From Flavobacteriales bacterium (lineage in GTDB: Bacteria; Bacteroidota; Bacteroidia; Flavobacteriales_F; PHOS-HE28), in NCBI GenBank assembly GCA_016717225.1, contig JADKGB010000013.1:34144-98143 (forward strand): a DNA stretch of 64,000 nt. The letters are read 5' to 3'. The notes under the pieces were generated by a model that was not told the origin of the DNA, ran no database searches, and saw nothing but the letters and a program-made list of their open reading frames with translations. This document shows, piece after piece, positions 7,688 through 64,000 of this stretch; the stretch's first letter is position 1, and each line of letters begins with the position of its first letter. Both the position numbers and the translations under genes were made by a program.

Positions 7688-8459
7688 TCACCAACCGGTG
7701 ACAAGCAGTTTTCGGGCTGCACCTGGACCGCATTTCTGCCATTTCGAGTAGGCTTGTGCCGCCCGTTCGCGCATTTGCTCATTGCTTTCGTTGCACACCC
7801 AACCTTGTAGAGCGGCGTCCAGCGTATAGGCTTCCGGCGCCATCAAACCAGTAGTCCAGAGCAGAGGTGTGGCCCCGGTAGCCTTCAACGGAGCGTTGAA
7901 GAACCGTTTGCTGATGCACGCGAGAATGACGGCCTCTCTTGTCGCTATTCGCTGGTTGGCGGGGTGCAGGCGGTGCGAAATCCATTAACCCGTCATGGCC
8001 GCAGTAGGCTATCAGATCCGCGGATCCACCAATGGCCAGTTTTATATCACCAACTTGAAGGGTGGTTGGATCATACCCCCCGGCGTAGCTCAAGAAATCG
8101 TTCGTTGCTTGTTGGATGAACTTGCCATCGTACGCATCAGCCACGAGGAACACGTTCTCGGTTACGTGTTTCCAGGTGATCCGTTCCAGAATATTCGTTC
8201 GTGGGTACGTCGAACGCTCGATCCGTTTCCATTCCTTGCTTTTGTTGAACCAGCTGCGCACACCATAAGCCGCACCCCAATACAGATTTCGTTCGGTGTC
8301 CTGGCCATTGCCCAATACGGCCGGTACGGGCACGATCCCCTGGTTCACGTTATCGCACAGGGCCACCACCACATGGATCACGCGTTGCGCGCTACCCAAA
8401 TGGGCGACCATGATCGCCCACGCGAACAGCGTCAACGGTAAACAGTGCCTTGCAGCCAT
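7688..8459 (-). pseudogene. exported hypothetical protein, apparent frameshift near 7930-7990
   Basis: The N-terminal 160 aa (signal peptide MAARHCLPLTLFAWAIMVAHLGSAQ ... LIAYCGHDGLMDF) are in one frame. A protein-like C-terminal ~100 aa (..ILACISKRFFNAPLKATGATPLLWTTGLMAPEAYTLDAALQGWVCNESNEQ..) continues in another frame. The in-frame continuation is low-complexity Pro/Arg junk. Confidence 0.45.
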
Positions 8460-8663
8460 GCGGTCATCATGTTATCGTCCAGTAGTTTTCCGATCACCCG
8501 ATGATGCGAATGCGCGAACGGGTTGTTCCTGTACAACGCCTCGGCCGGCACTCCTATTTCGTAATGATCTGCATCATCTACCTTAGCCAACCGCCTCCCG
8601 TTCCCGATCCAAGTGGATCAGGGTTTTCGGAAATCAACCCCCCCTTTCGCAGCACTTTTTATC

Positions 8664-10303
8664 ATGCGCAATTTCTCGCTGCTCTTTTTCGTCTTCGGAA
8701 TCTCGATAGGGCAGGCCCAGACGATCGGTCTGTTGGAATACTCACCTGGGAATCTGGACGGTTATGTGCTCTTTGCACCTATCCCCAGTACCACCACGTA
8801 CTTGATCGATAAGTGTGGGCGCGAAGTCCACGCCTGGCCCAGTGCCTACAAGCCAGGACAGTCGGTTTACATGTTGGACAACGGATCGTTGATACGTCCC
8901 GCGTCTATTCCGAATAACGTTTTCACTGCTGGTGGAAAAGCCGGTGCGGTCGAGCGGATCTCCTGGGATGGTGTGTTGGAATGGAGCTACCAGGTCAGTG
9001 ATACCGGGCAATGCAGTCATCACGACGTTTACCCGATGCCGAATGGGCACGTTCTCGTTCTGGCGTGGGAGAAGGTCAGCGTTGCCGAAGCGTTGGCGCA
9101 GGGTCGTGATCCGGCACTTCTAACCAATTCGTTGTGGCCAGAGAAGATCCTGGAACTTGAACCGATCGGCGAGAACCAAGCCAACATCGTTTGGGAATGG
9201 CATACATGGGACCACTTGGTGCAAGAATTTGATGATACCAAACCGAATTTCGCTCCCACCTCGGAACACCCGGAACTGGTTGATCTGAATTATGGTAACG
9301 GCATGGCGCAGGCGGATTGGATCCATGCGAACGCGCTCGACTACAATGCCGATCTGGACCAGATCATGATCAGTGCGCACAATTTCGACGAGCTCTGGGT
9401 GATCGATCATAGCACGACAACGGCCGAAGCCGCCTCGCATTCAGGTGGAACACAAGGTCACGGCGGGATCTGCTTTACCGTTGGGGAAATCCGGAAGCCT
9501 ACGGGCGTGGAACGGAAGCGGACAAGCGCCTTTTCGGCCAGCATAACACCCAGTGGATCAGGCCCGGGCTACCGCGCGCTGGTGAGGTTTTGGTCTTCAA
9601 CAACGGGGCTGGCAGGCCGGGTGGTCAGTATTCCTCGGTTGACATATTCGAAACACCGGTTGATGGGAATGGCGGTTATCCGATCGGTGTGGGTGTTCCT
9701 TTTGCTCCCGCAGCACTGGATTTCCAATGGACGGAACCGGTTCCGACGGATCTGTTCGCCCAGCGCATTTCCGGTGCACAGCAGTTGCCGAACGGAGGAT
9801 TACTTGTTTGTGATGGCCCTGCCGGATCTCTTTTCGAGTTGGGAACCAACAATGAGAAAGTGTGGCGGTACATCTCGCCCGTGAATTTGAACGGTCCTAT
9901 GACCCAAGGTGCGCCAGCCATTTTGAACACGGTATTCCGTTGCACGTGGATCGCCTCGAACCATCCGGGTCTGAATGGCCATGACCTCACTCCCGGTGAT
10001 CCCATCGAACTGGAACCATTGGCGAATGCGTGTACCACATCCAACCACCTCGAAGAAGCTGAGAACCCAGGCTTGATGGTCTTTCCTGATCCGACCTCTG
10101 GACCTGTTCAGCTTTCGCTGAACGGAGGTATCAGTTCTGTTTCCGTCACGGATGCACAGGGTAGGAGTATGGGTGTGCACCCATTGGTATCGGCAACAGG
10201 CAGAATGAGTGTGGATCTTTCCTCACTTGCGGATGGTATCTACTTGATACAAGCCGAACAAGACGGAAAGCGCTTTACCTCCCGCGTACTTGTTTCCCGT
10301 TAG
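8664..10303 (+). pseudogene. arylsulfotransferase (ASST) family protein with T9SS C-terminal domain, frameshifted at ~9465
   Basis: The N-terminal part resembles the ASST family. The second frame carries ...DLLYRWGNPEAYGRGTEADKRLFGQHNTQWIRPG..VLVFNNG and ends in the T9SS CTD GIYLIQAEQDGKRFTSRVLVSR. The frames rejoin if ggcggg is ggcgggg (a one-G deletion). Confidence 0.75.
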
Positions 10304-11109
10304 GCACCGGCATTCTTGCTCGCTCGTAAGGCATACACCATCGGTAGTTTGGCTTCCATGCCCTTGATCATGAACTGGCCATCGGCAGTGGCAACAGTAT
10401 TCTGAAAGCAGTCGTAGGGCGAACGGTCGTATTCGCGGAAGACATCCAGGCGAAGGCCTGCGATGATAAGTGCTTGCACCACATCTGCCAGGGAATGGTT
10501 CCATGCGAACGATGGCAGTTGTAATGGGGCGTTCCGAACGGCGTAGGTCCCGGACTCGTTCTCCTCGATCACTTCGCGATTGAAATAGGAGTATTGTACC
10601 CGTGAGAAGTCGTTGCTGTACATCCAGAGAGCCGGATGGAATTCAGCGAAGACCAATCGCCCACCAGGCTTCAAGTATGCTGCGATGTTCGCCGCCCAAG
10701 CGCTCAACTCGGGGAGCCAGCCAATGGTGCCGTATGTGGTAAAGACCACATCAAACCTTCCTTCGAGTTCTGTACGTCGGTCCAACACATTGCCCTCGAT
10801 GAATTCAGCACGAATGCCACAGCGATCGCTCAATTCTCGCGCTTTCGCAACAGCTTGGTCCGATAGGTCCAGTCCGGTGACGTGGGCGCCCAACCGTGCG
10901 AGTGAAAGTGTGTCCTGGCCGAAGTGGCATTGCAGATGCAACAGGTCTTGCCGGTTCACATCGCCCAAGAGATCCAACTCTATCCGGTTCAGCGTGCTTT
11001 TGCCATTCACGAAGGCCTCCACATCGTAGAACTGGGACGCATAGTGAAGCTCGGTGCGAGCATTCCACAGGGCTCGGTTCGCTTCGAAATGTGCGCGATG
11101 ATCATCCAT
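10300..11109 (-). CDS. class I SAM-dependent methyltransferase
   Basis: Assigned from general resemblance to class I SAM-dependent methyltransferases (no motif traced). Start MDDHRAHFE overlaps the upstream gene's stop (ATGA). Confidence 0.8.
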   Translation of the reverse strand: MDDHRAHFEANRALWNARTELHYASQFYDVEAFVNGKSTLNRIELDLLGDVNRQDLLHLQCHFGQDTLSLARLGAHVTGLDLSDQAVAKARELSDRCGIRAEFIEGNVLDRRTELEGRFDVVFTTYGTIGWLPELSAWAANIAAYLKPGGRLVFAEFHPALWMYSNDFSRVQYSYFNREVIEENESGTYAVRNAPLQLPSFAWNHSLADVVQALIIAGLRLDVFREYDRSPYDCFQNTVATADGQFMIKGMEAKLPMVYALRASKNAGA

Positions 11110-11786
11110 TACTTCGCAAGTGGGACCTGCTTTTCCTGTACGGGTTGAAAGGTCCCATCCTTCATGCCCCAGATCACCCAACGTTCGTGATCGCCTTCAG
11201 TGAATTTCTCCATGTTGCTCACCATCGTGAGCACGCCTTTCTCGTATTTGTAGGTGCTTCCACCGCGATGTCCTGGGCCTGCGTACCACTGAGAGCTCAC
11301 CATTTGCCGATCATGGTCGAACATGGGTTGCTGGATGCTATCGAGCATGCGCGACGATGTGAATTGGTTCGTTGCGGCATCCCACAACCAATAGCGGTGC
11401 TCGGCGTTCGTAAGGTCCGCCGCTGCTTCCATGATGCTGATGTCCTTGCTGCCGTTGAAGTCGTAGTCCAGCAGTTGCACCGCAGGGAATTGGCCATCAG
11501 GCATCGGGCAAGGGCAGGTCATGTTCTCGATCGCCAACCGTTGGAACGGTTCCTTGGCTCCTTTGGCACTTACCGAGATCGCATCAACGGAGCATTGCAC
11601 ACCCATGCTCATATGCATGTGTGTGCTCACGAGGAAGCGGATGTCCCGAAGGCTGTCGGTGAACAGGTAGCTTTCTTGTTTTGGTTTCTGTTCCGCAGCT
11701 GCAGCAGATGGGATATCCGCAGCCGCTTGTGGCACTGAGCTTCCTATGCACGCGAACAGGAGCAGAACCGGAAATAGACGGAGCAT
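11109..11786 (-). CDS. hypothetical exported protein
   Basis: Signal peptide MLRLFPVLLLFACIGSSVPQAAA. Translationally coupled to the downstream methyltransferase. No family recognised. Confidence 0.6.
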   Translation of the reverse strand: MLRLFPVLLLFACIGSSVPQAAADIPSAAAAEQKPKQESYLFTDSLRDIRFLVSTHMHMSMGVQCSVDAISVSAKGAKEPFQRLAIENMTCPCPMPDGQFPAVQLLDYDFNGSKDISIMEAAADLTNAEHRYWLWDAATNQFTSSRMLDSIQQPMFDHDRQMVSSQWYAGPGHRGGSTYKYEKGVLTMVSNMEKFTEGDHERWVIWGMKDGTFQPVQEKQVPLAK

Positions 11787-11810
11787 CGGAGCGATCGTTT
11801 GAGTTGCAAA

Positions 11811-11843
11811 AGAAGCAGGGCTTCCAATTGGAAGCCCTGCTTT
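11811..11843. terminator. hairpin terminator downstream of the lolA-like gene (minus strand)
   Basis: Perfect 13 bp stem aagcagggcttcc-aatt-ggaagccctgctt. On the minus strand it is followed by CTTTTGC. Confidence 0.5.
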
Positions 11844-11862
11844 CGGTCAATTTCGGGAAGGA

Positions 11863-12511
11863 TCAGCGTACATCGTTGATCTCTACTCCGGGGAACTTGG
11901 CCTTGTCGAACGTGAACACACTCTCGTACAGGTCCACGTTGGGGCTGAATTTCTTGAGCATGTATGTCACTTCGTTGCCCTCTTTGTAAAGCACCTTCAC
12001 CAGCTTGGGTTCCATTTTCGCTTTGTCCACGGATAGGATCACGGTGTGATAGGGCTTCTTACCAGGTTCCAGAGGGAACAACTTGAGCACTTGCACAACA
12101 GTGCCGTCGGCTTCCTTTTTCTTCAACGAACGTGCTTTTGAATCCCTGCTCATAAATGCTGAAGATCTTTGTGGGGTCCAGTTCCTTGTCCATATCCGCT
12201 GGGTCGCTGATGGTTACCTCGTTGCTCTTCTTGCTGTAAGTCCAAATGGCCTTGCCGTCGTTCACAACGGTGTTGTCCGTAAGCGTGAGGCGGAAGAGTT
12301 TGCCTTTCACTTTCACGTTACCGTCCTGCTTCACGTTCAATTTGCCCGCGGTGTTGATCAGCGTGCTGCTGAAATCGGCTTCGAAACTGGTGTACGCGCG
12401 ACTCTTCGCGATCAACTTGTCGATGATGGCTTTGCTCTTGGGGTCGTCCTGTGCACGAACAGTGGCGGTTCCGAGTATCAATAGAGCGAGGATGAGAAGG
12501 GTCTTCTTCAT
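11863..12511 (-). pseudogene. lolA: LolA-like outer-membrane lipoprotein carrier protein, frameshifted at ~12118 (A/T homopolymer)
   Basis: MKKTLLILALLILGTATVRAQ ... KIFSIYEQGFKSTFVEE in one frame. KEADGTVVQVLKLFPLEPGKKPYHTVILSVDKAKMEPKLVKVLYKEGNEVTYMLKKFSPNVDLYESVFTFDKAKFPGVEINDVR in the other. The two frames meet at gaagaaaaagg. Confidence 0.7.
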
Positions 12512-12615
12512 GTGGGCGAAATTAGCCGACCGCTGATGGCAAGGGTTGTGCCGAATTGTACCAGGGCTTGAAAAGGTTGACCGGAGAAGTGGTTCAGGCC
12601 CTGCGGACTTTGTCT

Positions 12616-13152
12616 TCAGGCCTTGGTCCGTTTCTTCGGAGCGGCCTTGGAAGTGGATCTCGCGGCCGCTTTCTTCACCGGCTTCGGCTTCTTCCACGTC
12701 AACATGGTGCCTTTGCATTTGGGGGAACCGCACTTGCATTCCCACGCTTTCAATTCCGCGGCTGTGGGTGGCTCGCTCAACACGATACCGTAGTCGTAGA
12801 TGATCTCTTCACCGGTCTTGATGTTCCGCTTGGCTTCGATGATCACTTTGTCTTTCGTGCGGTCTTTGCCTTTGGCTGTATGCACAAAAGCCACACCGTT
12901 CGGTTCGCATCCGGTGTTGATCCAGCGCGCATCGTTGCCATCCCGGTTGGCATCGATGACCCACTGCTTGTTCAGGATGAAAATGAACGTATGTCCGCTC
13001 TCGATATCGGAACTGTACCGCTCATCGGCCTCGGCATGCGTGATCAGCTTGCCTTTGTATTCCATGATATCCTCGCCTTTCTTGATATCCTCGAGGGCGA
13101 AGACGCCGTTACCGTGGATCTTCGATCGGCGCATTACTACTTTGTTCTTCAT
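12616..13152 (-). CDS. SET domain-containing protein (putative protein-lysine N-methyltransferase) with post-SET Cys cluster and Lys-rich C-terminal tail
   Basis: IHGNGVFALEDIKKGEDIMEYKG, then RWINTGCEPNG (the NHSCxPN-like motif), then GEEIIYDYG (the ELxxDY-like motif), then post-SET CKCGSPKCKG. Tail KKPKPVKKAAARSTSKAAPKKRTKA. ATG confirmed at 13152. Confidence 0.8.
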   Translation of the reverse strand: MKNKVVMRRSKIHGNGVFALEDIKKGEDIMEYKGKLITHAEADERYSSDIESGHTFIFILNKQWVIDANRDGNDARWINTGCEPNGVAFVHTAKGKDRTKDKVIIEAKRNIKTGEEIIYDYGIVLSEPPTAAELKAWECKCGSPKCKGTMLTWKKPKPVKKAAARSTSKAAPKKRTKA

Positions 13153-13261
13153 GGGCTGGTTTGGGGCCGCGAAGTTGCATGAATGGAACCATAGATGCAC
13201 GCGGATGCACACAAGTAATCCACGACCATGAACATTCTTTTGCGGCGAGGAAAAGCGGCGC

Positions 13262-14687
13262 TCAGAAATACGCCGTACACACGATCACCGCGGTGATCAC
13301 ACAGATCAGGTCCACCAGTAACATTACCCCTAGCGTGTAACGGCTGTTCTTCACGTTCACACTTCCGAAGTAGAGCGCGACCACATAGAACGTTGTTTCT
13401 GCCGCGCCTTGGAAGAGGCACGAGAGCTGCCCGGTGAGGCTGTCCGGGCCATAGGTCTTCATCGCATCCAACATGAAGCCGCGTGATCCTCCTGCGCTGA
13501 ACGGGCGCATAAGCGCGACCGGTATGGCATCGATCACTTGCTTGTCCACGCCTACCAGTCCCATCGTCCACGAAATGCCGTCCATTACAATGGTCATCAA
13601 TCCGCTGTTGCGGAAAATGCTGAGCGCCGCAAGCATCGCGATCATGTAAGGCAGCACCCGAAGGCCCGTGGTGAAGCCATCCTTCGCGCCGTGGATGAAC
13701 GAGTCGAACATGTTGGTGCCTTTCTCCGTGAAGTATTTCTCGAAGAGGAACGCATAGCCCACGATCATTGCGATGATCGCCAGCAGCATGCCATTGCTCA
13801 GGTTATCGGTGAAGTGGAATTTCTGAACACCTGTGAGCTGCGTGATGTAGGTCATCAACCCGCCAATGATGCCGCTGATCAACAACACGAACAACATCAC
13901 CGGTAGGTTGAACAGGTTGATCCGCTGGCGAAAGCCCACGATGAACAGCGCCGCTAACGTGCCTACGAACGACGTGACGCATCGGGATCATGATGTCCGC
14001 TGGATTCGCAGCGCCCTGTGCAGCACGATAGCCGATGATGCTCGTGGGCAGCAGCGTGAGCCCGGCTGCATGCAAGCACAGGAACATGATCTGGCTGTTC
14101 GATGCTTTGTCTTTCGTGGCGTTGCTCTCTTGCATGCTCTCCATCGCCTTCAAGCCGAACGGAGTGGCTGCGCTGTCCAGACCAAGGAAGTTCGCCGCGA
14201 AATTCAACGTCATGAAACCGTAGGCCGGGTGCTCATGAGGCAGATCAGGAAAGATCCGGCGGAAGACAGGGGAGAGGAAGCGCGCGAGTTTTTCCATGGC
14301 GCGTGAGTCTACCAAGAGGTTCAACAGGCCGCAGAAGAACGTGAGGTAGCCGATCAACGGTAGCCACAGATCGGTGATCGTGCCGCGACAGGTCTGGAAC
14401 AGCCCGTCGGCCGGTTGTTTGCCGATGTTCGCACTTAGTACGCCGCCCTTGCTCAACTTGAAAAGCGTATCGCCGCGTTGAACACCATTCTCCCCAGCAT
14501 TGCGCAATTCGATGAGGAAGGCTGTGCTGGCGATCGTCATCGTATCGCGCTCCGCCACCACCAGGGCGTCGCCCTGCTTGCCGTTCACCATGCTGCCCAA
14601 GGTGTACTGCCGTCCAGTGAACAACATCACCAGGATGTAGCCGATGCTGAGAAGAAGTATGAAGGTCCAGAAACGGCTGAGGGCCAT
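13262..14687 (-). pseudogene. nucleoside-recognition (Gate) domain membrane protein, SpmA/SpmB-like fusion, apparent frameshift at ~13985
   Basis: The SpmA-like N-terminal half (MALSRFWTFILLLSIGYILVMLF...) and SpmB-like C-terminal half (..FIVGFRQRINLFNLPVMLFVLLISGIIGG...) are in different frames. The junction is near ..NPADIMIP. Confidence 0.65.
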
Positions 14688-14733
14688 GTGTTGTTCGGTG
14701 GTTGGACAAAGCAGCAATGGAATGCGATCCATT

Positions 14734-14810
14734 CGTGCTCCATCCCCACTCGTGGCGAACAAACCGATGTGAAAGAGATGTCAGTGATGCGTCGGCGAGT
14801 GCGATCTTGG
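14734..14810 (+). repeat. copy 1 of an ~77 bp direct repeat (91% identical to copy 2 at 16784..16860)
   Basis: cgtgctccatccccactcgtggcgaacaaaccgatgtgaaagagatgtcagtgatgcgtcggcgagtgcgatcttgg. Ends 30 bp upstream of the hydrolase ATG. Confidence 0.85.
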
Positions 14811-14841
14811 CGCCCCAAGCATCCCCACAGATCCCCGCAAC

Positions 14842-16670
14842 ATGCCCCTAATGAAGAATGCGCTCTCCTGTTTCCTGATGATCGCATTGTTTGGTTCCTG
14901 TTCCGATCCCGGGCCGGCGGTGGTGGCGAAAGACCCCATCCACGAAGTGGAAACCGGCCTTTGTTATCCCAACTACCTGGTAGGCGACTCCACTTGGACC
15001 ATTGAGGAGCGCATGGCGCATTACGGTGTGCCCGGCATGAGTATCGCGGTGATCAAGGACAACAAGATCGCATGGATCAAGAGTTACGGTGTTGTGGACA
15101 AGGAGACCAAAGAGCCCGTTACGGACGCCACGCTCTTTCAGGCGGATCCATCAGCAAGCCGGTTTCCACATATGGCGCGTTGAAGCTGGCAGAGCTGGGC
15201 CTGATCGCATTGGATGCTGATGTGAACACGCAATTGCATTCGTGGAAACTGCCGGAGAATGAGTTCACGCAGAAGCAGAAAGTAACCCCGAAGTTGTTGC
15301 TTGGCCATATGGCAGGCACCACTGTGCACGGCTTTCTCGGCTACAGCCCCGACCTGCCCGTGCCCTCGCTTGTGCAGGTTCTGAGCGGTGAAGCTCCTGC
15401 AAATTCGCCACCCATCGTTGTGGACAAGCTGCCAGGCGAGAGTTTCCGCTATTCCGGCGGCGGTTACTGCATCATCCAGCAATTGATGATCGATGCCAAG
15501 GGCGCGACTTTTCCCAGCATCATGGATGAATTGGTGCTGCGCCCGTTGGGAATGACCAAGAGCACATACGATCAACCCCTCACCGGTGAACACCTGAAAA
15601 TGGCCGCCACAGGCTACGTGCCCGATGGATCCATGACCAAAGGGAAGCGACATACGTATCCCGAAATGGCTGCGGCAGGATTGTGGACTACGGCCGAGGA
15701 CCTCGCGCGCTATGTGATCGACGTTCAGCGTTCGTACAGCAGCGACAGTGGCGCTGTGATCTCCAAGGCTTCGGCCGCGATGATGCTGTCGCCGTACATG
15801 GAACCCTTTGCAGGCGTGGGCATGTTCCTGCGGATGAACCAAGGTGAAACTTCTTTCGGACACGGAGGTTGGGATGAAGGTTTCTCGAGCGAATGCGTCG
15901 CATACCGCGACAAGGGCTACGGTGTGGTGGTCCTTACCAATGCCAACCAGCCGGACTTCATCAGTGAGGTGATCCGTTCCGTAGCGCGGGCTTATGCCTG
16001 GAAGGGATATGTACCCACGTACACGAAACTGGAAATGGATCCCGCAGCGCTTGGAAGGGTAAGTGGGCGCTACCGCCTTTCAGGAAACTCCTTGACGACC
16101 ATTTCACATTCAGGTGGCCGCTTGTTCCAGCAGGCCATGGGCGAGGAGCCGGTTGAAATGTTCCGGATATCGGATTCCACCTACATCAGTCGGGACGGCG
16201 ACTTCCCTATCCAGTTCAAGGGATCACCAGCAGATAGCACGATGATCATGGTGAGTTGGGATACCGAAAAATGGACTGCCGCGTCAAGCTACCCAAGGTT
16301 GCAGGAAAATGACCGCCTGCCGATCGAGATGGTCCTCTCCGGTGATGTGGAAGGGGCCCTCATCGCTTACCGAACACGCTTGGTTGCGGATCCCAAGGAT
16401 CAGTCCATTTCCGAACAAGCGATCAACGATCTGGGCTACCAATTCCTCGGCAATGCAAAGATCGTGATGGCCAGGGATCTGTTCAACTTGAACAGGCAGC
16501 TATATCCCCAAAGTGCCAATACGAACGACAGTTACGCCGAAGCCTGCCTGAAGAACGGAGAAAAGGATCTGGCGCTGACCTATTACAAAAAAGCCGTTGC
16601 CATGGACCCCACCAACAGCAACGCGGCGAGGGTGATCAAGGAACTGGAGGGGAAGGAGGCTAATAAGTAG
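14842..16670 (+). pseudogene. serine hydrolase of the beta-lactamase (class C/PBP-like) family with C-terminal TPR-like region, frameshifted at ~15145
   Basis: MPLMKNALSCFLMIALFGSCS lipoprotein signal. ...YGVPGMSIAVIKDNKIAWIKSYGVVDKETKEPVTDATLFQA, then in the other frame GSISKPVSTYGALKL (the S-x-x-K active-site motif). The frames rejoin if gcgga is gcggga (a one-G deletion). Confidence 0.75.
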
Positions 16671-16783
16671 CATTCCATCCCGAACGTTCCAGATAGGGAA
16701 TGACCGCTATGGGACTCGAGCATCGTTGTCTGACCACAACCAAGTTCACACGCTGCGGACCTTTCTTGTTTTGAGTAGCTGCC

Positions 16784-16860
16784 CGTATTCCATTCCCACT
16801 CGTGGCGAACAAACCAATGTGAAAGGGATGTCAGTGATGCGTCGGCGTGAGCGATCTTGG
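16784..16860 (+). repeat. copy 2 of the ~77 bp direct repeat
   Basis: cgtattccattcccactcgtggcgaacaaaccaatgtgaaagggatgtcagtgatgcgtcggcgtgagcgatcttgg. Lies in a 900 bp non-coding region upstream of the RND efflux operon. Confidence 0.85.
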
Positions 16861-17577
16861 AGTTCCCGATTCAGCCGAACTCAACGGCGGGGTCCAGCGT
16901 TGAACGATCGCGCGAAAATGAAAAAATGTGAAACCGGGATCATGCCCCGGAACAACCTGATAAGTTCGCCGCCGATTTAGAAAGATGCTCCATCCCGCGC
17001 CCAACAGAATATTGCATGTCATCGTAGCATGTGCGTTCTGGTTCGGATTACAGATGTGCTTTCCGCAGGTGCTTCATGCAGCGGATCTCCCTGGTACGTT
17101 GGAAGAGATCAGCTGTCGCTCCATGGACCCGGAAGATCAGAATGGGAACCCGTGTCTGGGCTTCGGGCATGACATCTGCCTTCCACAGGGACTAACGATC
17201 TGCGCATCTGTGTTGGTGAACGCGCCCTGCCGGTCCTTGGAAACCGCTCATGGCCGTGGAAGCTTGTCGCTTCTTGCTTTAGAGGGTATCCAGCCCTCAG
17301 CCCCTTGATCCGACCAGTCCCGGTCCGCTGACCGGATATGCGGCCTCGTTTCCAGAGCGGCCGTTCCCTGTGAACACAGGCTTTCCGTTTACCGCGTCTT
17401 TCATTCTTGGTGGCGACCGACCCAATGGGCATGGGGCCTCCGCTTCCCGATCACCGATCCATTCTTGGTATGTTCAACAGCAGTCCTTCCATCGATCTGA
17501 AGTCTTCCCCGAAACAGGACCATCCACAACACCGGACGCTCCGGAGCGTTGAGGGAAATGGCCGCCGACAACTGGCC

Positions 17578-18684
17578 ATGGACCTCCCGCGTTCGCGTTG
17601 GCCCGCGTGGTCGCTCCTTGTAAGTCTGTGCCTTACGTTGTTGCTTGTCGGATGTGGTGCGCATGAGGAAGCCGTAGAAGTGGAGGACCCGAAGTATCCG
17701 GTCACCAGCCCGTTGCTCGCAGATACCATCGTTCAAAGCGACTACGTGTGCCAGATCCACTCTGTACAACACATCGAGTTGCGAGCGCTGGAGAAGGGCT
17801 ACCTGCAGGACATGCTGGTGGATGAAGGGCAGAAGGTATCGGAGGGACAGCTCCTGTTCCGGATCCGGCCAGTGCTTTATCAGGCCGAAGTGCAAAGGGC
17901 GCAGGCTGAGGCCGAGTTCGCGGAGATCGAGTACCGCAACACCAAGACCTTGGCGGACAGCAATGTGGTATCTCCCAACGAACTGGCGATGGCGCAGGCG
18001 CGCTACAACAAGGCCAAGGCTGAATTGGCCGCGGCCCAGGCTCACCTGGGATTCACCGAGATCCATGCACCGTTCAACGGCATCATCGGCAGATTCCATG
18101 TGCGGAAGGGTTCTTTGTTGGATGAGGGCGAACTGCTGACGGAGCTTTCGGACAACAGTTCCATGTGGGTCTACTTCAACGTGCCTGAAGCCGAATACCT
18201 GGAGTACAAGAAAAGATCCCTTGGCGGAAATGGTACCAAGGTGAAGTTGAAGATGGCCAATGGCCAGCAATTCGACCAGCAAGGCGAGATCACCGCCATC
18301 GAATCCGATTTCAACAACACCACGGGCAACATCGCGTTCCGCGCCACATTCCTCAACCCGCAAGGATTGCTGAGGCATGGGGAGACCGGCAACATCCTGA
18401 TGGACTCGGAGCTGAAAGGTGTACTGCTCGTACCACAGAAGGCCACCTTCGAGGTGCTCGATCACCGGTACGTTTATGTGGTCGGTAAGGACAGCGTACT
18501 GCACACGACACGCGTGGAGATCGGCCCTGAACTGCAGCACCTGTTCGTGGTGAACAGCGGGTTGAAGCAGGACGATCGGTTCCTGTTGGAAGGCCTCCGC
18601 AAGGTGAAGGACAAGGACAAGGTGGACTTCGAGTTCACCCCGCCCGATTCGGTGATGACGCATCTGGACCTGTACGCCGAGTGA
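17578..18684 (+). CDS. efflux RND transporter periplasmic adaptor subunit (membrane fusion protein)
   Basis: Lipoprotein signal ..LLLVGCG. Coiled-coil and beta-barrel regions typical of the HlyD/AcrA family. ATG at 17578. Confidence 0.9.
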   Translation: MDLPRSRWPAWSLLVSLCLTLLLVGCGAHEEAVEVEDPKYPVTSPLLADTIVQSDYVCQIHSVQHIELRALEKGYLQDMLVDEGQKVSEGQLLFRIRPVLYQAEVQRAQAEAEFAEIEYRNTKTLADSNVVSPNELAMAQARYNKAKAELAAAQAHLGFTEIHAPFNGIIGRFHVRKGSLLDEGELLTELSDNSSMWVYFNVPEAEYLEYKKRSLGGNGTKVKLKMANGQQFDQQGEITAIESDFNNTTGNIAFRATFLNPQGLLRHGETGNILMDSELKGVLLVPQKATFEVLDHRYVYVVGKDSVLHTTRVEIGPELQHLFVVNSGLKQDDRFLLEGLRKVKDKDKVDFEFTPPDSVMTHLDLYAE

Positions 18685-18707
18685 TCGGACGGCTTAACAC
18701 CTGAGAC

Positions 18708-23397: not shown

Positions 23398-23517
23398 TCG
23401 GCTGTAGGAACCGGTCCATCGGTATGGAAGGGCCGAAGGCCATGAACGGTTGTGTTCATGACCAAGGTTCCGATCATCCAACGGAGCGAACGCGGTAGCT
23501 CGATCATCCCGACCGAG

Positions 23518-24294: not shown

Positions 24295-24344
24295 TACACA
24301 TATGGAGCCCCGGAGCGCTCGTGTGGCCTTCACACGGGCGAAGA

Positions 24345-48147: not shown

Positions 48148-48171
48148 GATTTTGCCTTAGCGGCGGCGAAT

Positions 48172-55485: not shown

Positions 55486-57484
55486 AACGGTAGAGCCACT
55501 CGCCGTGAATGGGCTGGAAGTAGCTGTAAAGCACAGGATCCCCTTGCCGAACGCGAACGCTGAGTGAACTGATCGACACTTTTTTCTGGCCCGGATTGTA
55601 GAGATATGCTTTCAGACTGAGCCCTTGGCCGTGGCCAGGAAGATCAGCCAATTTTACGGCCGTGATCAACGCTGAACGATCCTTTGTATGCGGCAGTTGG
55701 AGAAGCTCAGAGGCACGATAGAAAACAGTGCTATCCCCATTTTTCAATTCGGCAACAAGTCGCAGGTCGCACGAAGGTTCCGAACGTTCCACGTCCGCGC
55801 GTATTTCAATTACATCGTTGTCGGTCCTCGCTAATTCGCTCACAGGTTTTTCGAACAGCGCGCCGTATTCGTGTCCTGTGAAGTCCCATCGTTCCAGCGC
55901 GAGAAATGGAGCGTTGGCGGGATCGGAAACCAGTTTGATGGAACTATCGATCACCCAATCTTCGCCGCCAATGGCTTGCGGAGTTCTCAGTCCTTTGAGG
56001 TCAGTGTCATCTATTCGGTTGCTCGGAGGACTTGATCGGAACAGAAATGTTTGCCCATCGTTCCTATCGACGCGTTTCACGAGGAATGGGAATCGCACTT
56101 GCACCTTGGCCACGTTCTCGGGCTGGGCATGGGTGGTTTGTCCATAGAAACAACTGCTCACTTCTGTGGCGGCCAAAAGGCTGTCCAAAATCCAAGGTGG
56201 CTGCGTTCTCAGATTGATGTATGGAGCTTGTGATGGATTTACGCACCATAGCTTCCGATAGAATCCCATGACTTCTTCGGGGAGGTCGACAATGGCGAGT
56301 GTCCCATTTTCTTCCGCATCCATGGTTCCTTGCACGATGTCCTCGTACTTGCTGGTCCTGACCATCTCAAAATGCCTGCGTTCTGTTGCCAGCGTCCAGG
56401 TTGCAATTGTCGCACAAATGCCGGCAATCACAATTCCGTGCTTCGGAGCCAAATGACGCAGCCCGGCAAGGATCCCCATGAGCAGATAAGGGAACGAGAA
56501 AAGAACAACGCTGTATTGTAGCACAGGTGACCTGAAGACCGAGTAAGCATAGCCGATCACCAGTGGCAGTAGACCCCATACGAACGTAATGACCAGAAGA
56601 GGAGCGGAAGCGCCCCCCTTATGCTTGATGCGCAAGTAGAGCGAACCGCAACAAAGCATCAATAGCAGCAAGGCAAACAAGGCTGAACAATGGGCGATCC
56701 ACCACACATAGTCCAAGACCCATTCCGGACTTGGCGACGTAAGCCATTCGTCCAAGCCTTTCATACCGAGTTGCGCGAAGAAGAGCGGGATGTTCGGTAC
56801 ATAACCCAGCACAATGATCCCACATGCGATCAAATAGGCCCTGCGTTGTTCCGCATTGATCAAGAACAGCCCCGTAATGCAGATGAACGCGGCGAGCATC
56901 AACGAGAAGTGATGCGTGTACGCACTAAGAACTGCCGAAATACCCAGCCCGATGAGGTGTTTTCGTTGCCCGTTCCCAATGAAACGTGTAAGCTGATCAG
57001 CCAGCAGCGCTGTTGTGAAAAAGCCCATCGCGTAGGGTCGAGCGATCTGCCCGTACATCACCGTGTATTGCATGGAGGCCATCAATGCAGTACCGATCAG
57101 CGCTGCTGTGCTGCTCGTCCAGGCATGCATCACGCGGTACAAAAAGAACAATGCGAGAACGGACATCAAGATGAACGGTGCTTTCACTGCGCCATCTCCG
57201 AAGCCGAACAGTTGTGTCCAGCACCACAGGAAGGCATGCGTTCCAGGTGGATGGGTATCTACGCCGACGACTCCTTTGGAGATCGCTTCGGAGAGCGTTG
57301 AATAGTCCACACGCACCAATGCGCTGATCTCATCGTGCGTAAAAGGGATGCTCGGAAAACCCCAACAGCGAAGTACCAGAGCCAGGGTCAGGAAACAGGC
57401 CAGCGCGATCTTCTCGGCAAACGAACCCGGAAGGAATGATCCAGCATCCGATCCGAGCTGATCGCGCCAATTGGTTCTATCCAT
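55484..57484 (-). CDS. glycosyltransferase family 39-like (ArnT/PMT-type) membrane protein with C-terminal extracytoplasmic domain
   Basis: N-terminal ~420 aa are polytopic TM, with a DE-like motif ..FTHDEISALV in the first loop. The C-terminal 250 aa are soluble. ATG at 57482-57484. Confidence 0.7.
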   Translation of the reverse strand: MDRTNWRDQLGSDAGSFLPGSFAEKIALACFLTLALVLRCWGFPSIPFTHDEISALVRVDYSTLSEAISKGVVGVDTHPPGTHAFLWCWTQLFGFGDGAVKAPFILMSVLALFFLYRVMHAWTSSTAALIGTALMASMQYTVMYGQIARPYAMGFFTTALLADQLTRFIGNGQRKHLIGLGISAVLSAYTHHFSLMLAAFICITGLFLINAEQRRAYLIACGIIVLGYVPNIPLFFAQLGMKGLDEWLTSPSPEWVLDYVWWIAHCSALFALLLLMLCCGSLYLRIKHKGGASAPLLVITFVWGLLPLVIGYAYSVFRSPVLQYSVVLFSFPYLLMGILAGLRHLAPKHGIVIAGICATIATWTLATERRHFEMVRTSKYEDIVQGTMDAEENGTLAIVDLPEEVMGFYRKLWCVNPSQAPYINLRTQPPWILDSLLAATEVSSCFYGQTTHAQPENVAKVQVRFPFLVKRVDRNDGQTFLFRSSPPSNRIDDTDLKGLRTPQAIGGEDWVIDSSIKLVSDPANAPFLALERWDFTGHEYGALFEKPVSELARTDNDVIEIRADVERSEPSCDLRLVAELKNGDSTVFYRASELLQLPHTKDRSALITAVKLADLPGHGQGLSLKAYLYNPGQKKVSISSLSVRVRQGDPVLYSYFQPIHGEWLYR

Positions 57485-57929
57485 GTTCACGAGCCAGATC
57501 GCGTTGCACGTCTTTTTCTTTGAGGCTATCGCGTTTGTCGTAGGTCTTCTTTCCCTTGGCAAGCGCAATGTCAACCTTGGCCAATCCTTTTTTACTGAAG
57601 AAGACACGCACGGGCACGATGGTCATGCCTTGGTCTTTCAGTTTGCGCTGAAGTTTCTTCAGCTCTGTTCGATGCAATAGAAGTTTACGGTCGCGCTTGG
57701 GCTCGTGGGCATAGTGTCTCGCTTTCTCGAAAGGCTGAATGGTCATGTTGCGAAGCACGAGTTCATCCCCAGCGAAGGTGCAAAAAGCATCCGTGATGTT
57801 CGCGTCGCCCAAGCGAAGACTTTTCACTTCACTCCCAACCAGTTGGATACCGCATTCGTAGGTCTCCAAAAAGAAGTACTCGAACGCGGCACGCCGGTTC
57901 TTCACTTCGGGCATTACGGGTGTGGTCAT
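57477..57929 (-). CDS. smpB: SsrA-binding protein SmpB
   Basis: 150 aa. Resembles SmpB (tmRNA partner). The assignment is from memory of the family, not from a traced motif. Confidence 0.9.
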   Translation of the reverse strand: MTTPVMPEVKNRRAAFEYFFLETYECGIQLVGSEVKSLRLGDANITDAFCTFAGDELVLRNMTIQPFEKARHYAHEPKRDRKLLLHRTELKKLQRKLKDQGMTIVPVRVFFSKKGLAKVDIALAKGKKTYDKRDSLKEKDVQRDLAREHG

Positions 57930-57987
57930 TCCAACATCCCTGTTGATGGGAAAGGCGAAGATGCGGGGTATGTGCCGAAGTTCGCTC

Positions 57988-59859
57988 TCAACGAACGATC
58001 AACACCGGCACTTTCACCCGGTGGCGCACGGCATCCACTGTAGCACCCAACAACAGGTCCTTCAGCCCTTTATGGCCGTGGCCGCCCATCACCAGCAGAT
58101 CGCATTGACTCGTATTCACGATAGCGCTGATGGCACGCACTGGATGGCCGTGACCGGTCCGGCTCCATGCTCGGAAGCCGAGTTCTTTCAGCCGGTCCAC
58201 GTAATGCTTCAGGTTTTCCGCGTCGCGCTGTGTTTCGTGGTCCGTGCTCAGTTCGCCAGCGTAACGCGCCGCCGCTGATTCGGTGATGTGTATGAGCATG
58301 TATTCCGCTTCCTTGCCACCTTGTGCAACAGCCGCATCGATGCTACGTTGGTCCACACCGCTGAAATCAACGGCAATGCAAATGCGCTCGTAACGCTTTA
58401 CATTGGGGGGGAGGAGTTCAGGCGCAGCGTCATGCAGGTGTTTTTTAGCCCGGCGTCGAGGTTTGAAGAACGGTTTGAACGCTACATAGATCAGAAGCAG
58501 GAACGCTGCGATCACCACCGGGATCACCAAGACATCCACCCAGATCGCCTGTTCACCGGCAACTGTGCGCCATTCGCTGATCTGCTGCACCACCAAACGG
58601 GCGTTCAACGAAACGATGATGATCGCGGTGAGCCACGCCAGGGCTTGCACCCAGCGTTTGATAACGTGTTCGCCCATGCGCACTTTGTCGCTGGTGAAGT
58701 GGATCAGCGGGATCACGGCAAAGCCCAATTGCAGGCTCAGGATCACCTGGCTCAACACGAGCAATTCCCCCAATGAACCTTCACCGAACCAGACGATGCA
58801 CACCACGGCTGGCACAATGGCGATCATGCGCGTGATCAAGCGGCGCAACCACGGGCGAATTCGCAGATCCAGGTAGCCTTCCATGATGATCTGTCCAGCG
58901 AGCGTGCCGGTGATCGTGCTGCTTTGCCCACTGCCGATAAGCGCGATAGCGAAGAGAGCAGGAGCGAGGTTCCCGAACAGCGAGCGCAATAATTCGTGGG
59001 CTTGGTCGATCTCAGCCACGTCCGTATGACCCGTTGTGTGGAATGCAGCTGCAGCCAGGATCAGTATCGCCGAATTCACCAGGAAGGCAACGTTCAGCGC
59101 GATCGTCGTATCGAAGAAATTGAATCGGATGGCATCACGAATACCCTTGGGGTCGCGACCATGCTTGCGTGTTTGCACAAGCGACGAATGCAAATACAGA
59201 TTGTGTGGCATCACCGTTGCGCCGATGATGCCAATGGCGATATAGAGCGCATTCCCTTCCAAAGCAGAAGGCACCAAGCCCTTGATCAGGGATCCGAATT
59301 CAGGTTGCACAATGAACATCTCTGCCAAGAAAGACAAGCCGATCATGCTCACGAGACTGATGATGAAGACCTCCAGCACGCGCATGCCGCGGTGCATAAG
59401 GAACAAGATGATCAGCGCATCGGCCGCTGTAATGAGCACACCGGTTAGCAACGGTAGTCCGAAGAGCAGGTTCAATCCGATGGCCATGCCGATCACTTCT
59501 GCAAGATCGCACGCGGCAATGGCGATCTCTGCGAGTATGTACAGCGGGATGTTCACCCAAGGTGGATAGGTGTGACGACTAGCCTGTGCAAGGTCGAGCC
59601 CACGTACTATCCCGAGCCGCGCGCTGAGGCTTTGCAATAGCAAGGCCATCAGGTTGCTCATCAGCAGCACCCACAAGAGTTTGTATCCGAAGGCGCTTCC
59701 ACCCGCGATGTCCGTGGCCCAGTTACCGGGATCCATGTAGCCAACGCTCACCAAATAGGCCGGGCCTATGAACGCGAGCAACTTGCGCCAGCCTTTCGCA
59801 ACAGGTACGGCCACGCTGCCGTGAACTTCGCTTAGCGACTTGTGTTCCCTGTCTTTCAT
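57988..59859 (-). CDS. mntH: Nramp-family divalent metal (Mn2+/Fe2+) transporter MntH fused to a C-terminal universal stress protein (UspA) domain
   Basis: GPAYLVSVGYMDPGNWATDIAGG Nramp signature. C-terminal ~140 aa ..ICIAVDFSG...LLVMGGHGHKGLKDLLLGATVDAVRHRVKVPVLIV is a Usp fold. Confidence 0.9.
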   Translation of the reverse strand: MKDREHKSLSEVHGSVAVPVAKGWRKLLAFIGPAYLVSVGYMDPGNWATDIAGGSAFGYKLLWVLLMSNLMALLLQSLSARLGIVRGLDLAQASRHTYPPWVNIPLYILAEIAIAACDLAEVIGMAIGLNLLFGLPLLTGVLITAADALIILFLMHRGMRVLEVFIISLVSMIGLSFLAEMFIVQPEFGSLIKGLVPSALEGNALYIAIGIIGATVMPHNLYLHSSLVQTRKHGRDPKGIRDAIRFNFFDTTIALNVAFLVNSAILILAAAAFHTTGHTDVAEIDQAHELLRSLFGNLAPALFAIALIGSGQSSTITGTLAGQIIMEGYLDLRIRPWLRRLITRMIAIVPAVVCIVWFGEGSLGELLVLSQVILSLQLGFAVIPLIHFTSDKVRMGEHVIKRWVQALAWLTAIIIVSLNARLVVQQISEWRTVAGEQAIWVDVLVIPVVIAAFLLLIYVAFKPFFKPRRRAKKHLHDAAPELLPPNVKRYERICIAVDFSGVDQRSIDAAVAQGGKEAEYMLIHITESAAARYAGELSTDHETQRDAENLKHYVDRLKELGFRAWSRTGHGHPVRAISAIVNTSQCDLLVMGGHGHKGLKDLLLGATVDAVRHRVKVPVLIVR

Positions 59860-60587: not shown

Positions 60588-62823
60588 ATGCGCTTCGCTC
60601 CACTCCTCATCGCCTTCCTGATCGCTGCATACGCCTCGGCCCAGAGCGGCACCCTTCGTGGCCGGGTGATGGATGCAGCAGGCCCGGTTCCGTTCGCGAG
60701 TGTCGCGGTTCGAGGAACCGGCGCTTCCGCAGCAACGGATCAGGAAGGACGGTTCACCTTGATGGATGTCCCGGCAGGGCGGCGTGTCTGGTAGTCATGG
60801 CCATCGGTTTTGAGCGCTTGGAAACCACGGTTCATGCCGTGGCCGGTGGCACGACCGATCTCGGGGATGTGCGGCTGGTGCCCACATCCGGAGAGCTGGA
60901 AGAGGTTGTCGTTACCGGCACGCTGAAGGAAGTGAGCCGCAGTGAGAGCCCCGTTCCGGTGGAAGTCCTTTCCTCCGCGTTCTTCCGCAAGAACCCGAGC
61001 CCGGCGCTGTTCGATGCGGTGGGCATGGTGAACGGCGTGCGCCCGCAGATCAATTGCAGCGTGTGCAACACGGGGGACATCCATATCAACGGCATGGAAG
61101 GTCCGTACACGATGGTGCTGATCGACGGCATGCCGATCGTGAGCGGGCTCAGCACCGTGTACGGCTTGAGCGGTATCCCCAACAGTTTGGTGGAGCGCGT
61201 GGAGGTGGTGAAGGGACCCGGGTCCGCGCTGTACGGCAGCGAGGCCATGGGCGGCATCATCAATGTGATCACAAGGACCCCGTGCTCGCGCCACGGTTCA
61301 GCGCCGATGTGTTCGGCACCACGTGGAACGAATGGAACGCGGATCTCGGCATGCGCTTGGGCAAGGGGCGTGCGCGCGACCTGCTCGGGGTGAACCTGTT
61401 CCGCTACAACGACCCGCGGGACATCAACAACGATGGCTTCACGGATGTCACCCTGCAGGAGCGGGTGTCCGTCTTCAACAAGTTCGACCTGCAGCGACCA
61501 CAGCACCGCTTGGCGAGCCTGGCCGCGCGGTACGTTACCGAGGACCGGTGGGGAGGCCAGTTGCAGTGGACCGATGCCGACAAGGGGAGCGATCGCGTGT
61601 ACGGCGAGAGCATCAACACCGAGCGCTACGAACTGATCGGCCAGTACCAATTACCGCTGCGCGAACGGGTGATCACGCAGTTCTCTTTCAACAGCCACGA
61701 GCAGGACTCGTGGTACGGCGTGGCACCGTTCCGCGCGCAGCAAAAGGTCTTCTTCTCGCAAATGCACTGGGCCCGCGATATGGGCCTTCGGCATGATCTG
61801 TTGCTCGGTGCCGCTTACCGATACACCTGGTATGATGACAACACGGTGGCAACGCGCGATGAAGCCTCCCGCACGCCACTGCCCGGCCTGTTCGTGCAGG
61901 ATGAATGGGCGATGACCGATGCCCAGAAGCTCCTGCTCGGGTACCGGGTGGACCATGATCAGGAGCATGGTCTGGTGCATTCGCCGCGCGTGGCCTACAA
62001 GTGGGCGCCCACAGGGCGCTTCGCTGTGCGCGCGAGCTTTGGCACCGGCTATCGCGTGGTGAACCTCTTCACCGAAGACCACGCGGCGCTCACCGGCGCG
62101 CGGGAGGTGGTGATCGCCGAAGATCTGCAGCCCGAGCGATCGCTGAACGGCACATTGAACATCGTGCGCAAGTGGCCCGGCGTGAAGCACTTCTTCGGCC
62201 TCGACCTCTCCCTTTTCCACACGCGGTTCAGCAACCGCATCCTGCCGGACTATCTGGTGGACCCCGACCTGATCGTATACGACAACCTCAACGGCTTCGG
62301 GATCTCCCAAGGGGTCAGCCTCAACGCCGAGGCGCGGTCGGGGAAAAACCTGCGGCTGATGGCCGGGGCAACGTGGATGGACGTGTATACGCAGGAGGAT
62401 CTCGCCGATGGCATTTCGCAGCGGCAGGACGCGTATTTCGCTCCGGACTGGTCGGGCACCTTAACGGTGAGCTTGGCGCTGCCGAAGCGCTGGAGTATCG
62501 ACCTCACCGGCCAGTGCTACGGACCGATGCGCCTGCCCGTGCTGCCGAACGATTTCCGGCCCGAGCGCTCGCCCACTTACGCTATCGTGAACCTGCAGGT
62601 GAAGCGGCCGATCGGCGAACATTTCGAGTTGTACGGCGGGGTGAAGAACCTGCTCGACTTCGTGCCCAGCGACCCGCTCATGCGGCCCTTCGATCCCTTC
62701 GATCAACAAGCGGGCGACCCCACAACGAACCCGTACGGCTACACCTTCGACACGTCCTATATGTACGCCCCGGTGCAAGGGGCGCGAGGGTTCTTCGGGG
62801 TGCGGTACACGCTTGCGGACTGA
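60588..62823 (+). pseudogene. TonB-dependent receptor, two frameshifts (~60790 and ~61281)
   Basis: Signal and CarboxypepD_reg (..GTLRGRVMDAAGPVPFASVAVRGTG...). Plug (..VVKGPGSALYGSEAMGGIINVITRTP). Barrel ending ..GFFGVRYTLAD. Split over three frames. The second junction is an acccc/accccc run. Confidence 0.8.
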
Positions 62824-62945
62824 CCGATTGGTTCCGCTTGCCCGGGTAACCGCCGATGGAAAGGATGATAGGAATATACGCTGAAGGGGCCTCCCGTAAG
62901 CCTGTATGTGTCGGACTTTGCAGTCGCGGGTACTTTCGCGGCCCG

Positions 62946-64000
62946 ATGTACGCTCTGATTCGACCACTCCTCTTTCTGCTCTCCCCGGAGCGCGCGCACA
63001 AAGTCACGTTCTCAATACTGGAGCTTGCGAAAAATGTGCCCGGAGCGTTGGCACTGGTAGGCGGTATGCGGCCACCGGCAAACGCGGCCGTGGATGTCAT
63101 GGGCCTGAAATTCCCCGGACCCGTTGGTCTCGCCGCTGGCATGGACAAGGATGCGAAGCACGTCGACGCGCTTGGGCATATCGGCTTCGGGCATGTGGAG
63201 ATCGGTACTGTAACGCCATTACCACAACCTGGCAACGATCGTCCGCGTCTTTTCCGCCTGAAGGCCGATCGAGCCTTGATCAACCGCATGGGGTTCAATA
63301 ACGAAGGAGTCATTGCTGCCTCATCACGACTGAAGGATCGTGTACCGGGGATCATCGTCGGTGGTAACATCGGAAAGAACAAGGTGACGCCGAACGAGAA
63401 CGCGGTGGACGACTATTTGAAGTGCTTCGAGGTGCTGCATCCTGTGGTCGACTACTTCGTGGTGAACGTGAGCTCGCCGAACACTCCGGGGTTGCGTGCG
63501 TTGCAGGAGAAGGAGCCATTGTTGGCCCTCCTTTCCACGCTGACAACAGGGTGAGGGGCAGCGCAGTTGCACGAGAGCAACGCATCCACTCGACGACCAC
63601 CTATCCTGCTGAAGATCGCTCCTGACCTAACCAATGAACAGCTCGACGACGTGGTGAGCGTGGTGAAGGAGAGCGGCATTCAAGGCGTGGTGGCAACGAA
63701 CACGACGATCTCGCGTGAAGCATTGAAGATGCCAAAGAGCGAACTTGATGCGATCGGCGCAGGAGGGCTGAGCGGTGCGCCGGTCCGGGCCAGAAGCAAT
63801 GAGGTGCTGCGCTACCTGCGCGCGCGACTACCCAGACCCTTCGTGCTCATCGGCGTTGGTGGAATTGACAGCGCCGAAGCCGCGATCGAGAGATTGGAAG
63901 CTGGTGCCGATCTTGTGCAGGTGTATACCGGTCTCATTTATGAGGGTCCAGCGTTGTTGAAGCGCATCAATGAAGCATTTGTGACATGGAAGGCAAACAA
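62946..64000 (+). CDS. pyrD: dihydroorotate dehydrogenase (quinone), class 2, with an in-frame TGA at ~63552 (3' partial, continues beyond the window)
   Basis: MYALIRPLLFLLSPERAHK... GFGHVEIGTVTPLPQPGN...GGNIGKNK. After TGA the same frame continues ..RRPPILLKIAPDLTNEQLDDVV..GIDSAEAA.. Confidence 0.8.

Follow-up and report, generated by a model that had tools for sequence, protein, structure and literature searches.

The window analysed here is a 64,000-nucleotide (nt) stretch of contig JADKGB010000013.1 (positions 34,144 to 98,143 of the forward strand) from the Flavobacteriales assembly GCA_016717225.1. It has a G+C content of 51–62% and a gene content typical of the Flavobacteriales, including type IX secretion system (T9SS) sorting domains, TonB-dependent receptors (TBDRs) and an RND efflux operon whose pump is 87–91% identical in amino-acid sequence to the pumps of uncultured Flavobacteriales metagenome-assembled genomes (MAGs). 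The RND pump, ftsK, rny, kup and mntH are intact, as stated in an original prediction made from the sequence alone. Among the ~55 genes of the window, 10 (~18%) are interrupted by a total of 15 insertion or deletion (indel) events, and pyrD contains in addition one in-frame TGA. These frameshifts are most likely errors of the assembled consensus and not lesions of the organism's genes.

Near-identical DNA to the window is present in metagenome assemblies from wastewater and other sources in the European Nucleotide Archive (ENA), in Logan read-run assemblies and in one NCBI MAG, and at least four strain-level variants of the species are represented in public wastewater data. Three contigs of this species from short-read metagenomes, L080, L081 and L092, recognizable by their megahit-style names (k141/k127), together span ~30 kb of the window at 98.0–98.6% nt identity. 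L080 was reached through a homologue search with the β-lactamase-family fragment, whose best match, P0001, is 96% identical and intact at 609 amino acids (aa); it is collinear with window positions 4849–16658 at 98.3% nt identity. L081, reached through a search for M23 homologues, matches 31885–40113 at 98.0%, and L092, to which an exact look-up led by way of a 96-aa protein encoded nearby, matches 31786–49940 (18.2 kb) at 98.6%. SmpB look-ups led to a sister MAG, GCA_016721685.1, of which two parts (L082 and L091) of one 165-kb contig, JADKHP010000016.1, are 97.5–98.4% identical to the window. In a scan of GTDB genomes, synteny with the window was confined to the efflux operon, so that this comparison is informative for TolC alone.

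Over 11.8 kb, L080 and the window differ in length by seven indels only, whose sizes are never multiples of three and which all lie in coding regions: 7933 (−2), 8636 (+1), 9464 (−1), 12115 (−2), 13979 (−2, complex), 14723 (−1, complex) and 15143 (−1). Each of these frame jumps was confirmed by translation. Over the 18.2 kb shared with L092, length differs at two places only, 38905 and 38987, both in the gene for an M23 peptidase. Across the high-identity blocks of the three short-read contigs these nine indels are the sole length differences from the window. Every orthologue in L080, L081 and L092 is one intact open reading frame (ORF), and because the orthologous ~30 kb do not contain a single broken gene, the breaks in the window exceed chance. 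The short-read contigs are intact at all nine clean indel sites that they cover; L080, whose more divergent second block ends just short of a garbled stretch at 28883–28913, also differs from the window there, which brings the total to ten events. The sites in TolC and in the first TonB-dependent receptor (TBDR1) were checked against more distant homologues only, and the two in the second (TBDR2) against the sister MAG and homologues only. The converse possibility, that the window is right and the references are wrong, was rejected, as the reference versions are full-length ORFs that match many homologues.

The lesions begin, in the part of the window covered by L080, with a hypothetical gene on the minus strand (7691–8435), in which (CT)4 is reduced to (CT)3 at 7933–7940 (−2) and the frame changes from −3 to −1 at residue ~165; its L080 orthologue is intact at 249 aa. 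The ASST-family T9SS gene (8501–10303, plus strand) is broken twice. An extra base at 8636–8637 (A to AA, +1, just before a C7 run) places the N-terminal 45 aa in frame 8501 and the remainder in frame 8502, and the loss of one base at 9464–9468 (GGGG to GGG, in a run that overlaps the G of a GATC) leaves residues 28–322 in frame 3 and residues 323–600 in frame 2. The orthologue in L080 is an intact protein of 600 aa. In the LolA-like gene (11863–12511, minus strand), a T7 run on the plus strand is shortened to T5 at 12115–12121 (−2), so that the N- and C-terminal halves of the Pfam LolA domain are read in two frames; the orthologue is intact at 216 aa. The gene for a fused SpmA/B (Gate) protein (13262–14743, minus strand) carries a complex change of net −2 at 13976–13985, where TGATCGTG has become CGCATC at or next to GATC sites, and a second break at codon ~7 (14720–14726), where the loss of one base is accompanied by flanking mismatches immediately 5′ of a GATC. 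Its start is read as MEHEWI in one frame and PLLLCPTTEQ... in the next, and the L080 orthologue is intact at 494 aa. The last of this group is the β-lactamase-family hydrolase gene (14842–16670, plus strand), in which GCAGGATCC is reduced to GCGGATCC at 15143–15144 (−1). Pfam PF00144 is matched at positions 4–51 and 53–314 in two frames, split at ~15143; the L080 version has 609 aa, nearly all homologues among the 120 listed have ~595–612 aa, and P0001 is the closest of them.

Further along, the TolC/OEP gene (21947–23397, plus strand) has lost one base at 22906–22908 (GTGAAG to GTGAG), 1 nt 5′ of a GATC. This is a single 1-nt gap in the window relative to all six related operons, more than 60 homologous proteins pass from frame 2 to frame 1 at 22906–22918, and the two Pfam OEP repeats are split at ~22906. 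TBDR1 (26444–28852, plus strand) has lost one base within GATCGCGCCGGGATC at 27790–27802, as located by a repair scan and by tblastn with nine homologues, for which frame 2 stops at or before 27793 and frame 1 begins at or after 27802. It has then gained one at 28333–28338 (G3 to G4), where tblastn alignments return from frame 1 to frame 2 at 28334–28338. Addition of one base at the first site and removal of one G at the second restore a protein of 802 aa, the size of the adjacent receptor gene (presumed orthologue) in L091 of the sister MAG; homologues from a full-library search measure ~800 aa. On the minus strand, the gene for a two-component-regulator propeller protein ends in the garbled, G/C-rich stretch at 28883–28913, has lost its stop codon and runs on to 28771. 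In a three-way MAFFT alignment with L091 and L080, this 3′ end shows gaps of −1, −2 and −6 and ~12 mismatches in ~50 nt, between identical flanks.

The M23 peptidase gene (37735–39469, minus strand) lacks one base at 38904–38906 (A3 to A2 on the plus strand) and one at 38987–38988 (GTGTGGG to GTGGGG on the plus strand), with the same gaps relative to L081, L091 and L092. Three frames are used inside 84 nt and the Pfam M23 domain is matched at positions 2–56 only; the orthologues are called as intact ORFs of 541–614 aa. TBDR2 (60588–62823, plus strand) shows two gaps relative to L082. At 60789–60790 (TCATGG to TCTGG, −1) the N-terminus MRFAPLL...PAGRRV in one frame continues as VVMAIGFERL in the next; the reading of L082 is continuous at this point and homologous to three TBDRs, hence the sister MAG is correct there. 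At 61272–61273 (GATCACC to GATCAC, −1) four homologues pass from frame 2 to frame 1 (61273–61318), and the Plug and barrel domains matched by Pfam are read in different frames, with the split between ~61260 and 61390.

The lesion in pyrD (62946 to beyond 64000, plus strand) is of a different kind: the TGA at 63552–63554 is not a frameshift and lies in a variable linker before KIAPD. Positions 3–149 of Pfam DHO_dh are matched before it and positions 147–285 after it with no change of frame, and the protein is collinear with solved dihydroorotate dehydrogenase (DHODH) structures across it. Window 63480–63620 does not align with L082 4265–4388; the sister MAG is longer there by 60 in-frame nt, with CACTCGCCAC repeats and a palindrome. 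The TGA of the window may be a genuine mutation, or an artefact due either to a wrongly substituted base or to a mixture of strains. When stop-to-stop ORFs were scored by codon usage, many high-scoring ones overlapped on the same strand in different frames at the places named in the original prediction, and a Pfam search for further split genes at 0–5 kb, 23–26 kb and 40–60 kb added only the in-frame stop of pyrD.

The original prediction had named twelve positions at which genes are broken (7960, 9465, 12118, 13985, 15145, 22906, 27799, 28345, 38901, 38985, 60790 and 61281). Alignments, frame switches and translations place a real event 0–27 nt from each of them. Breaks are confirmed at 9464, 22906, 27790–27802, 28333–28336 and 60789 (here by loss of the A of TCATGG), as is the suspected damage to the 3′ end of the propeller gene, which is garbled relative to two relatives. 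Elsewhere the breaks are equally real, with these particulars: the steps at 7933, 12115 and 13979 are of 2 nt and not ±1; the base lost at 15143 is the A of GCAGGATCC, not a G; near 38985 and 38901, where cccc runs had been named, the T of GTGTGGG is lost at 38987 and A3 becomes A2 at 38905; and what was taken for an error in a C5 run at 61281 is a reduction of CC to C just after GATCA, at 61272. The twelve sites fall in 9–10 genes rather than in the 12 or more that had been claimed. Three lesions were missing from that account, namely the +1 at 8636, the −1 at 14723 and the in-frame TGA of pyrD at 63552.

The surroundings of the hydrolase and propeller genes also differ in structure between strains, over window ~16660–28900 and L080 11830–14267. 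TBDR1 lies beside the propeller gene in both the window and the sister MAG, and the window has there, in addition, the RND efflux operon, a DUF2490 gene and a LytTR/histidine-kinase pair; between its hydrolase and propeller genes L080 has Choice_anch_L and Metallophos genes instead. A 72-nt direct repeat (93% identical) is found on both sides of the β-lactamase-family gene, at 14739–14810 and 16789–16860, and its left copy covers the Spm/hydrolase intergenic region. Elsewhere in the window (57988–59859), mntH forms a fusion with a domain of the universal stress protein type. Compared with the short-read strain L084, mntH has 0.23 synonymous changes per synonymous site (pS) and a ratio of non-synonymous to synonymous change (pN/pS) of 0.04, whereas pS is mostly 0.00–0.05 in the other genes compared and 0.10–0.13 in a few (Spm, hyp237 and the Fe-repressor). 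Such divergence suggests recombination or an old allele class.

The spectrum of lesions bears on the possibility that the genes are genuine recent pseudogenes, that is, that the strain carries real, fixed frameshifts through genome decay or the loss of surface and transport functions. Several observations are of the kind that this would produce: the affected genes encode mostly non-essential outer-membrane, secreted or transport proteins, two lesions are found in each of five genes, the events cluster locally, pyrD contains an in-frame stop, and the intact references are other strains. Of the events, 14 are simple, 12 of them deletions (nine of 1 nt and three of 2 nt) and two insertions of +1. 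The 15 indels are set against at most one nonsense change, the in-frame stop of pyrD, and the alignments with relatives reveal neither insertion sequence (IS) elements nor large deletions. After repair of the indels, pN/pS is 0.167 in the broken genes and 0.098 in the intact ones, so that both groups are strongly constrained, within the limited power that ~2% divergence affords; not one of 170 substitutions in the comparable broken genes is a nonsense change, and all fragments of broken genes keep a high coding potential. Strains less than 2% diverged have all of these genes intact, the contexts of the events fit known classes of nanopore error, and the garbled sequences at 13979, 14723 and 28883–28913 resemble poor consensus rather than point mutations. 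We consider genuine pseudogenes improbable.

Pseudogene-rich genomes are characteristic of host-restricted or recently specialised bacteria, with decay of the type found in Mycobacterium leprae or Sodalis. The window resembles these in that ~18% of its genes are interrupted, some by multiple lesions. It differs from them in that it lacks their mixture of nonsense changes, deletions and IS elements, in that the broken genes are under purifying selection, in that relatives 98% identical are fully intact, and in that the lesions of the sister assembly do not overlap with its own.

The sister MAG has private frame-breaking indels at the window equivalents of 33351 (ftsK), 45306 (CitMHS), 59644 (mntH) and 61047/61072 (TBDR2), and the window is intact at all of them. 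The window agrees with the short-read contig L092 at 33351 and 45306 and with the short-read contigs L083 and L084 at 59644; at 61047/61072 its frame is continuous with that of homologues. We considered whether the window might be the one in error at 61047/61072 and rejected this, as the frames of the homologues show the sister MAG to be wrong. The gene calls of the sister MAG do not include ftsK, CitMHS or mntH, and they contain TBDR2 only as a truncated gene of 576 aa. Since ftsK is essential in well-studied bacteria, its real loss is unlikely, which again argues against pseudogenes. None of the window's own indels is found in any of the four related assemblies. The sister MAG thus carries different private lesions, and the frameshifts track the assembly and not the phylogeny. 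Contig series JADKHP plausibly belongs to the JADJAA... series of 1083 activated-sludge MAGs of Singleton et al. Those MAGs were assembled from nanopore reads with CANU and polished with Racon, medaka and one round of Racon with Illumina reads (PMC8012365). Judged by its accession series, the sister MAG is probably nanopore-based, and its public record has the same quality problem as the window.

The breaks had been attributed almost always to homopolymers, a description that does not survive comparison with the correct sequence. Only ~5 of the 15 events lie in runs of at least 3 nt (G4 at 9464, T7 at 12115, A3 at 38905, G3 at 28335 and, in part, 13979), and 12.5% of positions lie in such runs, which is an excess, though one well short of the near-universal pattern described; several apparent runs at break sites arise from the deletion itself. 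Dinucleotide repeats are contracted at 7933, (CT)4, and at 38987, GTGTG, and a unique base has been removed at 15143 and 60789. The repeats raise the possibility of programmed frameshifting or phase variation, in which slippage would toggle surface genes or the ribosome would shift by design, as some sites are short repeats (T7, G4, (CT)4) and several targets are surface proteins (the TBDRs, TolC and the T9SS substrate). We rejected this and give it almost no weight: the shift is not conserved, since every relative has its orthologue as one continuous ORF; most sites have no slippery or long repeat, and many (15143, 38987, 60789) have none; the tracts comprise 1–4 units, except T7 in LolA, compared with 7–8 or more in typical contingency loci; and the −2 and complex changes, like two breaks in one gene, do not fit.

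A second sequence context is shared by many of the events. Of the 14 events that could be localised, seven are no more than 2 nt from a GATC (9464, 13979, 14723, 15143, 22906, 27790–27802 and 61272) and the other seven at least 17 nt from one. Permutation gives an expectation of 1.75 (P ~7e-4), for a motif that was picked post hoc. Two of the private indels of the sister MAG also abut GATC, at 61047, where the A of AGATC is lost, and at 33351, where GATCAAA becomes GATCAA. Substitutions between strains showed no enrichment near the motif (rate 0.015 near versus 0.017 far), so the effect of GATC is specific to indels. GATC is present at 687 sites in the window, one per 93 nt, which is 2.8-fold more than expected, and ~1% of these sites are affected by events; relative to base composition, GATT/AATC stand at 0.39-fold and CTAG at 0.05-fold. 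The majority of GATC sites are in codon phase xxG-ATC. The same skew extends to L080, L092 and L001–L007, which include both short-read relatives and Flavobacteriales MAGs at a greater distance, and is thus a property of the lineage. Taken together with the runs and repeats, the positions suggest errors linked to a methylation motif in addition to those in homopolymers. It is also conceivable that the single-base deletions near GATC are real mutations and not basecalling errors, left by a process that targets GATC and makes it a frameshift hot spot, perhaps a GATC-specific restriction-modification system that cuts the cell's own DNA, or nicks mended by error-prone repair. We regard this as very doubtful. 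If true, such a hot spot would inactivate surface and transport genes in natural populations of wastewater Flavobacteriales.

The garbled sites invite another explanation, in which several co-assembled strains of 96–99% identity were collapsed into a mosaic consensus and indels were left where their reads disagree, rather than through the chemistry of the platform as such. The strain-level variants known from wastewater data provide the material for such a mixture, the garbled events (13979, 14723, 28883–28913 and the pyrD linker) lie in or beside strain-variable sequence, pS is high (0.10–0.13) in the Spm and hydrolase genes, and the events are clustered. Most events, on the other hand, are clean single-base deletions amid identical sequence, and mntH, the most divergent gene, is free of errors in the window. 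As a complete account of the lesions we think a mosaic very improbable, although it would still be an artefact and is compatible with a long-read consensus error rather than a true alternative to it; a strain-mixture effect may contribute at the garbled sites.

We conclude, with a probability of roughly 0.9, that the frameshifts are an assembly or consensus artefact of the long-read type and not biology. This agrees with the original prediction of long-read-type indel error instead of genome decay, and the clean short-read contigs, the private shifts of the sister MAG, the bias towards deletions and the purifying selection all point the same way. The source would most likely be a MAG of a Flavobacteriales bacterium from activated sludge or wastewater, with a consensus that derives from error-prone long reads, probably of the Oxford Nanopore R9 type, and was incompletely polished. 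The residual errors would be mainly deletions of 1–2 nt, some in short homopolymers and dinucleotide repeats and others within 2 nt of GATC, as expected if methylated GATC perturbs the pore signal of adjacent bases, and a few would be locally garbled stretches of consensus. Each error would shift the frame and cause gene callers to split 10 otherwise intact genes, which would be functional in the organism.

Directly observed are the indels in their exact contexts, and the fact that short-read assemblies of the species lack them at the sites covered. Other points weigh against an artefact. The references are other strains (96–98.6% identity), none of them same-strain at any indel site, and the artefact status of every site is supported indirectly, by comparison with other assemblies and homologues. 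The platform of the window is deduced, not documented. The association with GATC was noticed post hoc, for a motif that is itself over-represented, and methylation in the organism is only putative. Eight pairs of events lie within 850 nt of each other, against ~2.8 expected (our own estimate from the coordinates), and decaying pseudogenes could also give this clustering and the double hits in five genes. The in-frame stop of pyrD is atypical of long-read indel error. Finally, the affected genes have mainly dispensable surface and transport functions, and most housekeeping genes, pyrD excepted, are intact.

Short Logan and ENA contigs (from runs SRR11673995, SRR11673999, ERR5523447 and others) are 99.1–100% identical to window 56904–58791 and 39283–40245. 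Public short-read data sets therefore contain the strain of the window itself and would be usable for polishing. The 99–100% identical short contigs (L086–L090, L095–L097) reach no indel site of the window. A look-up of PorTail323 returned two contigs, both of which end before 7933, and exact look-ups of the Fe-repressor, SET, hyp208 and LytTR proteins, aimed at same-strain short-read contigs over the indel sites, gave no match.

The errors are of a kind known from nanopore assemblies. In Oxford Nanopore consensus sequences, methylation motifs account for the largest class of error and homopolymers for the next (PMC6591954); further errors fall in heteropolymers, in GC-rich sequence and up to 5 bp to either side of methylated bases, those of GATC among them (PMC12392509); and in unpolished nanopore MAGs indels give rise to frameshifted gene calls (PMC9262707). 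With the residual indels of R9-type data, which are diagnosed by the IDEEL test and removed by short-read polishing or proovframe-type correction, the window shares a bias towards deletions of 1–2 nt in homopolymers and short repeats, fragmented gene calls, absence from short-read assemblies and a different set of lesions in each assembly (PMC9262707). It differs in that only about a third of its events lie in runs of at least 3 nt, and its platform is presumed. With the errors known at methylation motifs (Dcm CCWGG and Dam GATC), it shares a concentration of errors in the immediate neighbourhood, a few bases at most, of a short palindrome. The published errors are mostly substitutions, whereas those of the window are deletions of the base or bases that flank GATC; few of its GATC sites, about one in a hundred, are affected, and their methylation is putative.

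Left as they stand, ~18% of the genes in the window would be wrongly annotated, as pseudogenes or in fragments, inflating pseudogene counts. Domain architectures (TBDRs, TolC, M23 and ASST) would be broken, and pangenome or metabolic inference from this genome would be biased. Half of the events lie no more than 2 nt from a GATC, and polishers and quality-control rules directed at homopolymers only would miss them. The value of these results is that of a quality-control flag, and they reveal nothing new biologically. They give a hint that errors flanking GATC, besides those in homopolymers, survive in assemblies of this kind, and the association with the motif hints, in turn, at methylation of GATC by the organism.

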